Positions 25,091 to 57,079 of a stretch of DNA of 64,000 nt are shown in pieces. Under the pieces are notes generated by a model. The model saw nothing but the letters and a program-made list of their open reading frames with translations, searched no databases and was not told the DNA's origin. Both the position numbers and the translations under genes were made by a program. Source of the stretch: Octopus vulgaris (Eukaryota); assembly GCA_951406725.2 (NCBI GenBank), contig OX597822.1, positions 53,940,001 to 54,004,000 on the forward strand, in the 5' to 3' direction. Within the stretch, counting starts at the first letter, position 1, and each line of letters starts with the position of its first letter.

Positions 25091-25711
25091 AGCAGCAAAT
25101 AAGTTCACTGAGACTATAAGACCAACATGTAGTGGAACAGATCCGATAGAGTCTTTACGGCCTTTATCAACGGCTGCCAAAATTCCAAAGATAAGCAAGA
25201 ATGTGATGAGCATTTCCACTAACATAGCTTGTAAATCGGAAACACCCGGACCAGGAGTAAGAACCCCTAAATTTCCATGCATATTTGACGGTGTAATAAT
25301 ACGTATGTATGCCGCTCCTGTAATAGAGCCGAGCATTTGACTCATAGAGTAGAATATGCAGCGGATCCAACTTATGTCACCAATTATCGCGAAAGCCAAA
25401 CTGACGGCAGGGTTAACGTGAGCACCACTTATATGGACCAAGCTTCCGATGATGATTGCAATAAAAAAGCCTGATGAAATACAAGCAAAAAGCAATCCAT
25501 TCGGTGGGGAATTCTCATTACTCATTCCAGAAGCAACTGCGAAACAAACAAGTAAAGCGACTCCAAGAAATTCCGCCAATACTGCTTGCCAAAATGTTGG
25601 TTGTTTTACATCTTCAAGTTCTCTCATCAGGAATACTTTCCAACGCCGAGCTATATAACTTTTTTTGTAGTCAAGAGGTTTTTGTCTGTCACTATCAAAA
25701 TTCTTATTCAT
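25091..25711 (-). CDS. Aquaporin (MIP family), first coding exon, copy B (TM1-TM5, 207 codons)
   Basis: ATG at 25711. Motifs FWQAVLAEFLG, HISGAHVNPAVS, SQMLGS, EMLITF. Ends ...NLFAA followed by a GTAAGT donor (25090-25085), the same position and phase as copy A. By hand count, 49 differences in 181 aligned residues and no indels. Confidence 0.95.
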
Positions 25712-25847
25712 TTTTGTTCTAAAGATTTGAAATCAATTACGGGCGTTTAAAAATTGAAATAAAATGTTATTAAAAGCTTGAAAGATTTTGTCTATCAAAT
25801 TGATAGTAATACAACAGATGGCGTTTTCTTCTCAAAATATTTTCCCA

Positions 25848-26098
25848 TTTCAAAAACAATGTTCACTTAAAAATTAGTGACTATGAAAAATGGAATATGT
25901 CACTTACTTTTCTCTTAATCGCAGATAAATATCAACACGTGGATATCTTGATAGTTTTTGCCGCTAACACATGGGATTTTATCGCTGCGACAACCTATTT
26001 ATTTACTGGCTATACGAGCTTTACAAAGCTTTAAACAGGTTTTCTTTCAGCTACTAAATAAATTTCACAGCGTCTGAGTCAAGTAGAGCTAATCAACG
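25848..26098 (-). promoter_or_regulatory. Putative promoter/5' UTR of aquaporin exon B
   Basis: tgttcactta...tatgaa...tcactt (25848-25910), tttatttactggc (25998-26010), agctaatcaacg (26087-26098). Same order and similar spacing as upstream of exon A. Confidence 0.5.
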
Positions 26099-27971
26099 TA
26101 ATTCTATTTATCTGTCTGTCTTTCTGTCTTCACACGCACACACGCACGCACTCACGCTTGCATGCATGCATGCATACACACATACATACGTACATACATA
26201 CATACATACATACGTACGTACGTACGTACGTACATATGTAGTGGCTATGGTTTAGTTTTACGTCGGGTTAGTGAAGCGATAAGCTGTAGCCGTCTACCAA
26301 ATGTTGAGTGCGGGATGCGGACAAAAGACCCTAAGGACAAAAGCTTCACGGACAAAACTTGTTGCAGTCATTAGACTGTGGCCATGCTGGGGCACCATCT
26401 TGAGGAATTTTTAGTCGAATGTATCAACCCCAGAATTTTTTAAAATGATTTTCAATCAGCACATGAAGTTAAGCCTAGAGGATCGCTCCACATGCTAGAA
26501 ATAACAGCCAAATCTCTTGAAATTTTTTTATAACCCCCTCGGTTATATTTTTTGGCTATTCTTCGATTTTTAAAAATTTTCTGAAAATCTTTTTACTTGT
26601 TTCAGTCATTGGACTACGGCCATGATGGGGCACCGCCTTGAAGGTCTCTCCACATGCTAGAAATAACAGTCATATTTTAACAATTTTTTGAATAATTTTA
26701 CGCAAACAAAAACAGAAATCGTGGTTGTAAAAGAAAAAAAAAAGAAAACTTTTATTTTCCAAAATTCCAATTTTTAAGTAAACAAAATATATTCAATCGA
26801 AAATAAATAAGTAGAATAGAATAAAAGAACACAAGACTCTTTCCTACTCAATGTAACTTATGATTGATTGATTGATTCTAGTTTCAGCTCACGAGCTGTG
26901 GCCATGCTGGGGCACCGCCATTTGTCTGAATTCTAACAAAAGGGAAAGCATTTACTTCAAGAAATGTGTCGAAACATAAAAAAACAATAAGAAGTACGTT
27001 TGAACGACTAGTGTTCGGCGCCAGACCTTCAACAGAAAGTTCAAAAGGTCAGCTCATTCTCATTACTCTGTAAGTGCTGAGAGAAGAAAACAAAAGACTT
27101 TAAATTTAAATTTTAAAATGCTAATTTTTCTACGACTACAAATTCTTCAAGGCGGTGCCCCAGCATGGCCGCATTCTAATAACGGCAACAAGAAAAAGGC
27201 GAAAAAAAAAAAAAAACAAAACGAAAAAAAAACAAGAAAAACCAAACAAACAAACAGAAAAAAATAACCGAAAAATATAACTGTAGGCAACGCTAATTGA
27301 AACATATACGCAAGCCCACAAAATATTCCTTGGTAGTCAACGACAGTTATCTCTCCTGATCGAACATTCTAGAATATTCCAGAAAATTGCAGGCGAACAT
27401 AATTAACTCTCCCTTTGCTAATTTACTACGCATAACATCAAAATAACATGCAGGAGGTCGCTGCAGCATTCCCGCTTAAATCGGTCTCTCTTCTCTAACT
27501 GCTTCTCTGAGAAGCGATCTAGAGAAAGCCAGGCACATGAATTCGATATATGATTTCCTACCAACAGCTCGCCATGGTATTCTACGTCTATTCCCTGTGA
27601 GAAGTAAATCACGTAACTTGATTTATTTCTATTTTCTCAGAATCACCATGGAACATGGCAAGTTGTTCAAAACCTTTCTTCTTCCCAGAAATCTTTATTG
27701 AACATTGTATACTCACTGTACGTGTTCATTTATCAGATGTCGGAATAAAATCTTGAACATGAAGCTATTCACACAGAATGAGTTTTATTGTCTTTTACTG
27801 CACAGAAGTATTTAATGTAAAGTATCATGGATAACCACATTGGGGAGGAGGTGTTACTGTAGCTTTATAGCCCCAAGAGATCTTCGTCTCTAGCTGGCTC
27901 TAGACACAATATCTGTGTCCTTGGAGTATTTGCAAAGGAGGCCATCCCTTCCTCGCAAGCCTGAGTGATAC

Positions 27972-28012
27972 GCTCGAACTAGTTTCGGGATTGTTGTCCC
28001 TCGTCAACGGGC
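27972..28012 (-). ncRNA. Minimal hammerhead motif (C3U core variant) in a probable Penelope LTR
   Basis: GCCCG-TTGACGA-GGGA-caacaa-TCCC-GAAA-CTAG-TT-CGAGC. Stem III is the palindrome ACTAGT; stem I pairs 4/5. Confidence 0.65.
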
Positions 28013-54692: not shown

Positions 54693-55372
54693 AGTCATTT
54701 GACTGCAGCCATGCTGGAGCACCGCCTTCAGTCGAACAAATCGACTCCAAGACTTATTCTTTGTAAGCCTAGTACTTATTCTATCGTTCTCTTTTGCCGA
54801 ACCGCTAAGTTACGGGGACGTAAACACACCAACATCGGTTGTCAAGTGATGGTAGGGGGACAAACACAGACACACAAACATATACATACATACATACATA
54901 CATACATACACACACACACACACACACACACGCACACACACACACACACACACACACACACACACACACACACACACACACATATATATATATATATATG
55001 TATATTCGCGATGATAGATCGCTAGCCAGTACACATGCTTTATTTTCTCTCCTTGTTTCTTTCTGTGTTCCTTTCTGTGGAAGAGCGTAGGCTCGAAACG
55101 TTAAAGACTTTCTCACTTCCTGAGCGTTAAACTAATACATCTGTTTGTTGTCTACACTACCTATCTTCGTCTTTTTAAAATTTTTATTAATTCTCCCTAT
55201 ATATGTAAACGACGGGCTTCTTTCAGTTTCCATCTACAAAATCCACTCACAAGGCTTTGGCCAGCCCGAAGCTATGGTAGAAGACGCTTGGGATCTAGTC
55301 TGACCATTTGCTCAAGGAGCTACGCAGTGGGACTGAACCTGAAACCATGTGGCTGGAAAGCAAGCTTCCTAC
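54693..55372 (-). mobile_element. Family-A SINE interrupted by a hammerhead element
   Basis: Tail at 54693-54880, head at 55210-55372. Confidence 0.75.
55006..55198 (+). mobile_element. ~190-bp hammerhead-bearing element (core mutated)
   Basis: 55071-55106 reads CTTT-CTGTGGA-AGAGC-GTAG-GCTC-GAAA-CGTT-AAAG. Aligns end to end with 22335-22523 and sits in the microsatellite of a family-A SINE. Confidence 0.7.
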
Positions 55373-56163
55373 CACACAGCCACTTCTGCGCCTATACAGT
55401 ATATGTGTGTGGTCGCGCGCGCGTGTGTGTATGCGTATGATTATATATTATACATATATACACACACATACATACAAGCACACACAAACACACGCAAGTT
55501 CGCACGCTCGCGCGCACGCAATGGACGACAAGACACCAGTATAAGCGAAGAGTAGATGGGCAACAAATCTGTTTTCAAATCTGTTCTGATTCTTGAAAAG
55601 CCAACGTCCTAATTAGAGGGAAAATAGTCCAGTGAAATAAGCGATGTCTATGAGAAACGCAAAGGTCGACGATCGAATATTAATAGAAAAACAAAAGATA
55701 GACAAACACTTATAAATGGCTGGAAATCAGTTATGTCACATTAACAAAAATATAAGTTAGAAGAAGAGATGACAGTCCTTGGAAGTTCTTTACAGTTGTT
55801 TCAAATAACTTTGTTACTGGCTGATGCAATTATGTGCATTATGCAAACGTTTGCGCATAATGACAGAACAATGCAGAACAAGACAATTACACACACACAC
55901 ACACACACAAACATACAAAATACATACATATATAAAGATATATGTGTACATACACATACAATACACATACATATATAAACATATATAAATGCATGCACAC
56001 GCACACAAATATTCATGTCCTGATGGTATCAACAAATGTATCTATCACTTAATCTGTCTATCTATAAATGTGTGTGTATGTATGCATCTATGTATATAAG
56101 TATATCTGTATATATATATATATATATATATATATATATATATATATATATATATATATATAT

Positions 56164-56356
56164 AGGGAGAGTTTACGAAAAAAAAACCAAAAGACGAAGA
56201 CAGGTGGTGTACAAAACAAACAGAATTATTAGTATAACGCTCAGGAATAGAAAAGGTCTTTTACGTTTTGAGCCTACGCTCTTCTTCAGAAATTGACGCA
56301 GAAAAAAACAAGGAGAGAAAAAAATGTGTGTAGTGGCTAACGATCTATCATGGCGA
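56164..56356 (-). mobile_element. ~190-bp hammerhead-bearing element just inside the aquaporin intron
   Basis: Reverse-complement copy of 22335-22523. Minus strand reads TTT-CTGAAGA-AGAGCGTAGGCTC-AAAA-CGTA-AAAG, with GAAA changed to AAAA. Confidence 0.7.
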
Positions 56357-56410
56357 CATATATATGTATTTTTGTATAAAGAGATAATATAAGAATGGAA
56401 TGTTACTTAC

Positions 56411-57079
56411 AGCAGCAAACATGTTAAGTGATACTATAAGACCAATGTGCAGTGGAACAGATCCGATAGAATCTTTACGGCCTTTATCAACGGCTGCCAA
56501 AATTCCAAAGAGGAGCAAGAATGTAATCAACAGTTCCATTATCATAGCGTGTACATCACTAACTCCAGGTCCAGGGCCAACAACTCCGAAAGTTTGGTAC
56601 ATAGTAGACGGCGCTACAGTACGTATGACAGCCGCTCCTACAACGGCTCCGAGCATCTGAGCTAATGTGTAAAATATGCAACGGATCCAACTAATGTCAC
56701 CCACTATCGCGAATCCTAGACTGACAGCGGGGTTAACGTGACCTCCACTTATATGGCCCAAAGTACCGATGATAATAGTGATGAAAATGCCCGATTCAAT
56801 ACAAGGAAAAAGCAATCCATTCGGTGGAGCATTCTCATCGTTCATATTTGCACCAACTGCGAAACAGACGAGAAAAGCGGTTCCAAGAAATTCTGCTATT
56901 ACCGCTCGCCAAAATACTGGCTGTTTTATATCTTCAATTTCTTCCATCAGGAATCTTTTGCAATTCTCGGCTAGATGATTTGTATGTTTGTTCACTGCTG
57001 TCTGGAAATGAGATTGCTTGTCTTGTCTAAGGTTCTCAGAAGATTCGGGATCAGTCGAGGTAGCTTGATAATTATCCAT
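56411..57079 (-). CDS. Aquaporin (MIP family, AQP1/AQP4-like backbone), first coding exon, copy A (TM1-TM5, 223 codons)
   Basis: ATG at 57079. Motifs FWRAVIAEFLG, HISGGHVNPAVS (NPA1), YTLAQMLGA, ELLITF, DKGRKD. Ends ...NMFAA followed by a GTAAGT donor (56410-56405), phase 0. No stops or frameshifts. Confidence 0.95.

Follow-up and report, generated by a model that had tools for sequence, protein, structure and literature searches.

A probable variable-exon aquaporin gene in Octopus, with two alternative TM1–TM5 exons joined to one set of 3′ exons

Two paralogous exons of Octopus vulgaris, A and B, each encoding five of the six helices of an aquaporin, enter the same downstream exon, C1, in assembled contigs. 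We think it likely that they belong to one aquaporin gene, in which each is spliced to the common C1 and, likely, on to C2, giving what are likely two full channels, probably from two promoters, and that the purpose of the arrangement is mainly regulatory. The window, i.e., the whole stretch of DNA analyzed, has 64,000 nt (assembly GCA_951406725.2, contig OX597822.1, positions 53,940,001–54,004,000 of the forward strand).

Exon A (56411..57079 of the window, minus strand) has 223 codons, which encode the ATG, an acidic N-terminus, TM1, TM2, the NPA1 half-helix, and TM3–TM5, and is 100% identical to residues 1–223 of the annotated A+C1+C2 protein (P0001). Exon B (25091..25711, minus strand) has 207 codons, for an ATG, a shorter and basic N-terminus, and TM1–TM5 with NPA1, and is 98–99% identical to the first exon of the O. 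sinensis B-form protein (P0005). In both, a whole codon is followed by the phase-0 donor GTAAGT, and 31,320 nt separate the two donors. The frames are open, with an in-frame stop 5′ of each ATG. Pfam MIP is matched by A and B alike (positions 2/3–177 of 222, E ~1e-40), and a motif scan in all six frames finds NPA1 in an aquaporin context only twice in the window, once per variable exon. Over the last 181 codons there are 49 differences and no indels. An earlier note on this DNA had described two intact same-strand paralogous exons 31.3 kb apart, each with its own ATG and an identical donor; the coordinates, frames, and donors are reproduced, and its count of changes exactly so. A and B are thus built like the variable part of a variable/constant locus: paralogous coding exons arranged in tandem and on the same strand, with their own start codons and equivalent donors.

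The remainder of the channel is encoded beyond the window. Exon C1 (53930680–53930600 of the contig, minus strand; 81 nt) lies 9.3 kb left of window base 1 and codes for loop E with NPC-R; exon C2 (53925773–53925576, minus strand), 14.2 kb left of the same base, codes for TM6, the C-tail, and the stop. Positions 1..25090 of the window (minus strand) are part of the intron leading to these shared exons, which measures 65,730 nt from A to C1 and 34,410 nt from B. In 264 kb (the window plus 100 kb on each side), tblastn with six NPA2-exon and two unorthodox-aquaporin C-terminal queries finds one NPA2 exon, and a motif scan one TM6 exon. Both are left of the window, and neither method places such an exon between A and B or in 1–25090, in agreement with the earlier note. 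Blastn with a word size of 7 detects no remnant of C1 or C2 between A and B, the other matches being short and of low complexity, so that a duplication of the exon would look the same as a whole-gene duplication followed by complete 3′ loss. When the whole genome is searched, with the B-type protein and with the DNA of exon C2 as queries, each 3′ exon is represented by a single close copy. There is no assembly gap from A to C2, and the only N gap in the 264 kb is 92 kb upstream of A. Single copies of C1 and C2 thus argue against a separate 3′ set for each first exon, and the gap-free gene against an assembly gap as the cause of the 3′ exons missing for A.

The splice junctions come from four sequencing runs, presumably of RNA, examined as contigs rather than reads. 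In two of the four (X1 and X8, from two studies), both A-type and B-type contigs enter the first 21 bases of C1; the other two (X21 and X24) gave no contig on exon B, which we do not count as evidence. Each of these runs contains two 112-nt contigs with a common loose end of 21 nt, which is the reverse complement of the first 21 nt of C1 and occurs once in the 264 kb. Compared with the last 91 nt of B, one contig has 0 differences and the other 9; in the genome, too, exactly 9 sites within this stretch of 91 distinguish A from B, the final one being 10 nt away from the donor. The support for each junction consists of 21 nt of C1, and that for the C1–C2 join of annotated proteins. Both forms come from the same pair of samples, and the depth of their contigs is similar. 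Variable exons are here spliced to one constant set, in that both junctions go to C1 and both C1 and C2 are single-copy. The proposal that both first exons splice to one downstream set is upheld by contigs in which both donors join C1, in two studies, and exon A is expressed if the runs are RNA, as presumed, since A-type contigs are present.

Existing annotation holds both products. In O. sinensis, isoforms X1 and X2 (XP_029641698.1, XP_029641699.1) have identical C-termini of 95 residues, and in O. bimaculoides (XP_052826461.1, XP_052826462.1) of 96 residues. CAI9727836.1, labelled O. vulgaris, is the A form; no B-form protein with this label was found in protein databases. The RefSeq/GenBank models give the same two products with a common C-terminus, but under automated labels, and the use of duplicated TM1–TM5 exons is unstated in them. 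In an older annotation of O. bimaculoides, each exon is a truncated protein in its own right, and the C-terminal part is listed by itself (P0002, P0004, P0020). We found no description of a variable-exon layout in aquaporins in the literature searched. The earlier note did not know of this architecture in aquaporins either; the products themselves are already listed by RefSeq as X1/X2. Among 185 proteins compared for a common C-terminus with diverged homologous fronts (library clustered at 50%), only the Octopus pairs have this layout; three other pairs with a common C-terminus each fall within one 90% cluster, and 21 long or multi-stretch matches resembled whole-gene fusions or had ambiguous motif counts.

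Joined to the constant part, either exon gives a full-length MIP domain above the curated cut-off (207 bits for A+C; 204 bits for B+C, from O. sinensis P0005), with matches covering positions 2/3–222 of 222. The structure predicted for A+C1+C2 is a complete fold of six membrane helices and two half-helices (54–77, 90–107, 117–126, 131–155, 175–197, 208–223, 233–243, and 251–271; mean pLDDT 75, core mostly 80–95), in which the end of TM5 (residue 223) and the start of TM6 (251) are the exon borders. Each variable exon carries NPA at 116–118, and C1 carries NPC at 232–234 and R235. In an alignment to AQP4 and AQP0, the aromatic/arginine filter, at what we take to be its positions in AQP1/AQP4, reads S/M/G/R for A and S/L/G/R for B. 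The Phe (TM2) and His (TM5) of water-selective classical aquaporins (AQP1/AQP4 type) are both replaced in A and in B, and in the available text of PMC8925068 it is the replacement of these two residues that defines malacoaquaporins (Maqp). According to the available text of PMC12771848, citing another paper, malacoaquaporins let water as well as hydrogen peroxide through, but no glycerol. Both octopus products are predicted from their sequences to be wide-filter, malacoaquaporin-like channels that would pass water and perhaps hydrogen peroxide. A and B have fixed differences in O. vulgaris and O. bimaculoides at 31 of 180 positions, including M220/L at the TM5 filter site, E95/S adjoining the TM2 site, P92/A, G113/A, and I212/V. 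Glu at position 95 is found in A, in Argonauta, and in three cephalopod-like proteins. The N-termini are strongly different, with a net charge of −4 in A versus +4 in B.

Both exons are under purifying selection, as the earlier note had supposed: their frames are open, and dN/dS between them is 0.33 (95% CI 0.21–0.51), at a dS of ~0.5. A simulated dead copy remained free of stops in 26 to 161 of 2000 trials (indels uncounted). Across species, B is 88% identical to the B exon of O. bimaculoides, the value for A being 91%. Gene conversion near the donor was considered and is not claimed: the last 37 codons have a dS of 0.27, versus 0.63 before them; a window with a dS as low appeared in 1130 of 5000 shuffles, and the 40-nt identical run was reached in 99 of 5000. 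In a tree of 19 rows, B is outside a group formed by A and three cephalopod-like proteins (support 83/99, unstarred). With four rows removed (three long-branch, one near-duplicate), the support for A, Argonauta, and B together is 51/35, and an AU test does not reject a grouping of A and B without Argonauta (p 0.32). Annotated proteins show both exons retained in O. sinensis and O. bimaculoides, and a protein search found no B-type protein outside the genus Octopus. Judged by sequence comparison, the duplication is older than the split from O. bimaculoides. The available texts report a long first exon and an 81-nt NPA2 exon in oyster classical aquaporins (PMC8925068) and first-exon-only aquaporin duplicates in oyster and mussel (PMC8925068, PMC12771848); another first-exon-only duplicate, decayed, lies on contig C1 of the O. 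vulgaris genome (not to be confused with exon C1). In the ancestral molluscan gene, a long first exon may have been followed by the 81-nt NPA2 exon and then by a last one, and the long exon would then have been tandemly duplicated in the same orientation upstream of the single 3′ exons, so that both copies would have kept a working donor.

The two exons have different colinear 5′ regions, of ~360–400 nt each. For exon A, the 5′ untranslated part is likely to be 57080..57448 (minus strand), of at least ~360 nt: A-type contigs with lengths of 967 and 953 nt would, if colinear, reach 57448 and 57434 (inferred ends), and the fraction of the words of 56380–57400 that is present is 0.93 in run X1 and 0.87 in run X8. 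An ambiguous element, either a splice acceptor or a core promoter, lies 400 nt upstream of the ATG of A (57478..57510, minus strand). Its strong pyrimidine tract (0.94) and an acceptor-like AG ending at 57480, just past the inferred contig ends, overlap a hexamer at 57483 that we take, by its consensus motif, to be initiator-like, with a presumably TATA-like hexamer at 57507. Given this acceptor-like site, a non-coding exon may precede A. For exon B, the 5′ untranslated part (25712..26110, minus strand) runs colinearly with the genomic sequence over 400 nt or more. Contig 4 of run X1 spans 25162–26110, running over the end, and contig 9 of run X8 spans 25162–25891; B-type contigs are thus colinear 5′ of the ATG for at least 400 nt and for 180 nt, respectively, beyond the only acceptor-like AG (25881). 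No splice is seen at the AG directly before the ATG of B, and B-type contigs have no loose end 5′ of the ATG. The 5′ end of the longest B contig is near a microsatellite (~26125–26260), which could have broken the contig.

In the reading that we prefer, the start site used would select the nearest donor, and B would be passed over in A transcripts because, as we propose, it has no used acceptor. The purpose would be mainly the separate control of the place and time of synthesis and of trafficking, through the 5′ regions and the charge of the N-terminus, with a modest tuning of the outer pore as a secondary effect, through Met/Leu in the TM5 position of the filter and Glu/Ser beside the TM2 position. 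The choice could instead be made by splicing from one upstream promoter, if A and B were mutually exclusive internal exons or followed non-coding exons. This would fit the pyrimidine tract and AG just past where the A contigs are inferred to stop, and a break of the longest B contig at the microsatellite, but the same element can also be read as an initiator with a TATA-like box, and the B-type contigs of both runs continue past the acceptor-like AG; we consider a single promoter unlikely. The same architecture could also serve mainly to make two pores, the exchange of TM1–TM5 altering permeation and mixed tetramers adding further types. The fixed differences, M220/L and E95/S among them, are in keeping with this, as is the switch of glycerol passage by a single change at the TM5 filter site of an Artemia channel (available text of PMC12135271). 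However, three of the four filter positions (S, G, and R) are the same or shared, Met/Leu is conservative, and dN/dS reflects constraint, not positive selection. We hold it rather unlikely that two pores are the main purpose, and it is only tentatively that one may picture exon choice switching the pore, with differing selectivity or gating (from Met/Leu in the filter and the loss in B of a conserved TM2 Glu) and differing trafficking, in different cells or in mixed tetramers, over a common loop E, TM6, and tail.

Two further explanations are much less probable. Exon B might be transcribed and yet dispensable, left over from a partial duplication, since first-exon-only duplicates arise and decay (as on contig C1 here and, in the texts cited above, in oyster and mussel) and B-type proteins were not found beyond Octopus. 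Its open frame, intact donor, conservation in O. bimaculoides, spliced contigs in X1 and X8, and dN/dS well below 1 at such a dS make this very improbable. The truncated proteins of the older O. bimaculoides annotation would suit a pair of complete genes in tandem, the assembly having collapsed or dropped their 3′ exons, but the sequence from A to C2 is unbroken, both contig types merge into the same letters of C1, and copies at this dS would not retain identical C-termini in the annotations of two other species; we give this hardly any credence.

Aquaporin families are thought to expand via whole-gene duplication, and the aquaporin splice variants described alter, to our knowledge, the tails. 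At the octopus locus, five of six helices and half of the selectivity filter are interchangeable and the remainder is constant, which provides a built-in test of how selectivity, gating, and targeting depend on TM1–TM5 and the N-terminus. If pore switching were true, nature would here have made a half-channel swap experiment, and aquaporins would have a way to diversify that longest-isoform surveys miss. One survey, in its available text, retains each gene's longest isoform (10.1101/2022.07.25.501387); such a procedure would count one channel instead of two, and older annotation broke the locus into truncated pieces. The position and strand of "first-exon-only pseudogenes" of molluscan aquaporins deserve checking before these are dismissed.

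The nearest non-cephalopod matches of the octopus protein are molluscan. Maqp proteins (oyster Aqp4L1, mussel Aqpc1 and Aqpc3) have the same classical-aquaporin exon layout and replaced filter Phe and His, but the bivalve duplicates are described as whole genes in the available texts (PMC8925068, PMC12771848), and the octopus channels are likened to them by layout and filter. One aquaporin gene with two products is also known in salmon louse (Glp1 and Glp3 v1, v2, with a proximal or distal first exon; PMC4539701), barnacle (Aqp1/2 v1, v2), and Artemia (PMC5513457, PMC12135271). These variants are described, in the available texts, as N- or C-terminal, whereas in octopus duplicated exons replace five helices and NPA1. 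The analogy drawn in the earlier note with UGT1A and clustered protocadherins applies in part: in these, as in GCNT2, several variable exons in tandem lie upstream of a single constant set, but in the available texts (PMC1885805, PMC7811963) their promoters are demonstrated to be separate and their arrays are mostly larger, whereas the octopus promoters are putative and the locus has two variable exons only, not the large array of a clustered protocadherin in the strict sense, in which the choice of promoter is stochastic and specific to the cell. Because the octopus array has two members, the closer analogues are, by analogy of layout, small variable-exon loci such as insect Gr39a and Gr28b or GCNT2, and not the large protocadherin clusters. 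According to the available text of PMC3011837, the multi-pass membrane proteins of Gr39a, Gr28b, and Or69a have long N-terminal exons that are paralogous and that each join short common C-terminal exons, with exon birth and loss. These loci differ from the octopus locus in belonging to an unrelated protein family and in having up to five or more variable exons instead of two, and in octopus the cut divides the pore filter between the variable and the constant parts.

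Exons A and B, the two paralogous aquaporin exons of the window, lie on the minus strand at 57079-56411 (223 codons) and 25711-25091 (207 codons). Each has an in-frame stop upstream and a GTAAGT donor after a whole codon. The coordinates, open frames and donors first claimed in the earlier note were all reproduced, as was its count of 49 residue differences, with zero indels, over the last 181 residues. Both exons match positions 2/3-177 of the 222 of the Pfam MIP model, and exon A is alignable to AQP4/AQP0 as far as the end of TM5. Outside the coding part, no homology is detectable between the flanks of A and B, the top local scores (44) both being short or simple repeats.

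The window also holds several repeats and fragments. Between exons A and B there is a DDE_1 transposase remnant (33892-34389, plus strand, E 1e-15). A short minus-strand frame at 30774-31136 has two C2H2 zinc-finger-like motifs (weak Pfam matches) and probably belongs to the end of a mobile element. At about 13240-15780, broken minus-strand frames resemble, by eye, pieces of a retroelement polymerase; three fragments from this stretch gave no Pfam match. There are a 570-nt pair with 93% identity (41079-41648 and 53025-53585), a 250-nt tandem pair with 98% identity (63340-63591 and 63720-63971), and many copies of a dispersed repeat of 240-400 nt.

A genome-wide MIP search of this assembly (31/31 candidates scored, 25 matches) finds on contig C9, which contains the window, exons A and B, one NPA2 exon (53,930,597-716), and two aquaglyceroporin-like exons. 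When 100 kb on either side are added to the window (264 kb), the sole NPA2 exon is exon C1 (C9:53,930,680-600, minus strand, 81 nt, AG before and GT after), and the sole TM6/tail exon is exon C2 (C9:53,925,773-579, minus strand, then TGA). These single exons support the proposal that one set of 3′ exons serves both A and B, with C1 likely spliced on to C2. Each of exons C1 and C2 was found as a single close copy in the genome, and no third variable exon was found with either the B-type protein (26/26 candidates scored) or C2 DNA (4/4) as query; because only the best candidates were scored, the match counts are lower bounds. The 264 kb contain one N gap (C9:54,088,896-54,088,995), 92 kb upstream of exon A. 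Matching translated stretches about 9.1 kb apart (54,088,567 and 54,097,690) lie on either side of it, which may be a repeat or may have arisen by false duplication at the gap. The aquaglyceroporin-like exons (C9:54,325,682-54,339,897, minus strand, loci L017 and L009) belong to a gene that shares the strand of A and B and lies about 330 kb upstream.

Exon A is spliced to C1 over 65.7 kb, skipping B, and exon B is spliced to C1 over 34.4 kb, because both A-type and B-type contigs carry the first 21 nt of C1. Sequencing runs X1 and X8 come from two studies, and in each there are two 112-nt contigs over 25091-25181, one with 0 and one with 9 mismatches to B. Over those 91 positions A and B have exactly 9 differences, the last one 10 nt from the donor. 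Both kinds of contig show an identical 21-nt loose end at the donor in both runs, the reverse complement of the first 21 nt of C1, which occurs once in the 264 kb. Given the position of the last difference, 31 letters are enough to span both a base that tells A from B and the 21 nt of the following exon. Hence, the predicted joining of both donors to one shared acceptor is found in X1 and X8, on the support of assembled contigs rather than reads, from runs guessed to be RNA: exon A is present whole or in part in 20 of the 24 runs listed, none with RNA on record. Four of the 24 were compared with exon B, with the likeness threshold set to 80% to let contigs of the A type align as well; in X21 and X24, picked for lacking A, no contig aligned to exon B. 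A 40-nt piece common to A and B has depths of 92 and 95.5, about the sums of the separate contigs (48+53 and 41+43), which fits the presence of both forms, contig depth being a poor measure of expression. In longer contigs the loose ends fall in exon A itself (56955 and 56839).

B-type contigs are colinear with the genome upstream of the ATG for at least 400 nt (X1) and at least 180 nt (X8), with no loose end, and the expected end of the A-type contigs is some 360 nt ahead of their own ATG. These stretches fit two first exons, each about 1 kb long. It is possible instead that a non-coding exon precedes exon A, as a strong pyrimidine tract and an AG ending at 57480 lie just past the ends of the A contigs; the same letters, however, also match an initiator that has a TATA-like box 25 nt upstream of it. 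The stretch at 57478-57510 (minus strand), where the tract and AG overlap the initiator-like hexamer, is a candidate for either an acceptor or a core promoter of exon A, the initiator and TATA-like labels following the usual consensus motifs. In both runs, B-type contigs depart from the window at two places, by another base at 25406 and by a missing base at 25741 in the 5′ untranslated part of B, through either polymorphism or assembly error.

Comparing A with B by the Nei-Gojobori method gives a dN/dS of 0.33 (bootstrap 95% CI 0.21-0.51) and a dS of 0.53. In simulations, a neutral copy stayed free of stops in 161/2000 cases at 0.13 substitutions per site and in 26/2000 at 0.27. Identity to the O. 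bimaculoides counterpart is 91% for exon A and 88% for exon B; 31 of 180 positions have A/B differences fixed in both genomes. The duplication predates the O. bimaculoides split, and trees gave no finer dating. The sole species-shared change, exon A residue 128 and its B equivalent (Asp here, Glu in O. bimaculoides), is a faint hint of what may be conversion or parallel change.

Another aquaporin provides a natural contrast. Locus L004 (contig C1 of the assembly, 93,828,671-93,829,198, minus strand) is an inverted duplicate of the long first exon of locus L001 (93,967,052-609, plus strand), 91% identical over about 2 kb. Unlike A and B, it no longer has an intact frame, the break lying close to its 3′ end, and no 3′ exon, such as one for NPA2, was found on its strand. 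The closest NPA2 exon to the parent is 181 kb downstream (94,148,317), which implies, if the two pair as one gene, a very long intron.

In a structure model of A+C1+C2 (13-sequence alignment, mean pLDDT 75), TM5 is predicted to end at 223 and TM6 to start at 251, the exon borders. By alignment to AQP4/AQP0, the variable exon provides the TM2 and TM5 residues of the filter and C1 the other two, giving S/M/G/R in the A form and S/L/G/R in the B form at the expected filter positions. A and B are also fixed for different residues close to the pore at E95/S, P92/A, G113/A, and I212/V. Ahead of the first helix motif there are 55 residues in A versus 39 in B, and the N-terminal net charge is −4 versus +4 here and −3 versus +6 in O. 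bimaculoides. Because the N-termini differ more than the filter and pore sites, the favoured role of the swap would be to let the two forms be regulated and trafficked separately, with some mild tuning of the pore.

Automated annotation in RefSeq already lists both products as unnamed isoforms, the A type as X1 and the B type as X2, with a common last 95 residues in O. sinensis and 96 in O. bimaculoides. The protein P0001, labelled Octopus vulgaris, agrees with A+C1+C2 at every residue. In O. bimaculoides, an older annotation splits the locus into three, two aquaporins that are truncated and a C-terminal piece of 86 residues on its own (P0002, P0004, P0020). A protein of Argonauta is A-like (81% against A, 72% against B), and P0006-P0008, cephalopod-like by similarity, have one front type about equidistant from A and B. 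The protein searches (16 and 15 matches) found no B-type protein outside Octopus, which may reflect annotation.

Full-text searches of mostly open-access literature listed no description of this locus or of a variable/constant-exon layout in an aquaporin. The aquaporin splice variants described in PMC4539701, PMC5513457, and PMC12135271 differ at the N- or C-terminus. Aquaporin duplicates consisting of the first exon alone have been reported from oyster (100 kb downstream; PMC8925068) and mussel (copies on different chromosomes; PMC12771848), where they are called pseudogenes, at positions incompatible with splicing of the octopus kind. Variable exons on common constant exons are established for UGT1A, GCNT2, and protocadherins (PMC1885805; PMC7811963), and, where the protein crosses the membrane several times, for Gr39a, Gr28b, and Or69a of insects (PMC3011837). 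The feature is real and the variable-exon/constant-exon model of the earlier note is supported. The finding gains interest if it is true that the two forms differ in selectivity or gating. In conclusion, the locus is an aquaporin version of a known gene organization, with two variable exons whose products may differ in function.
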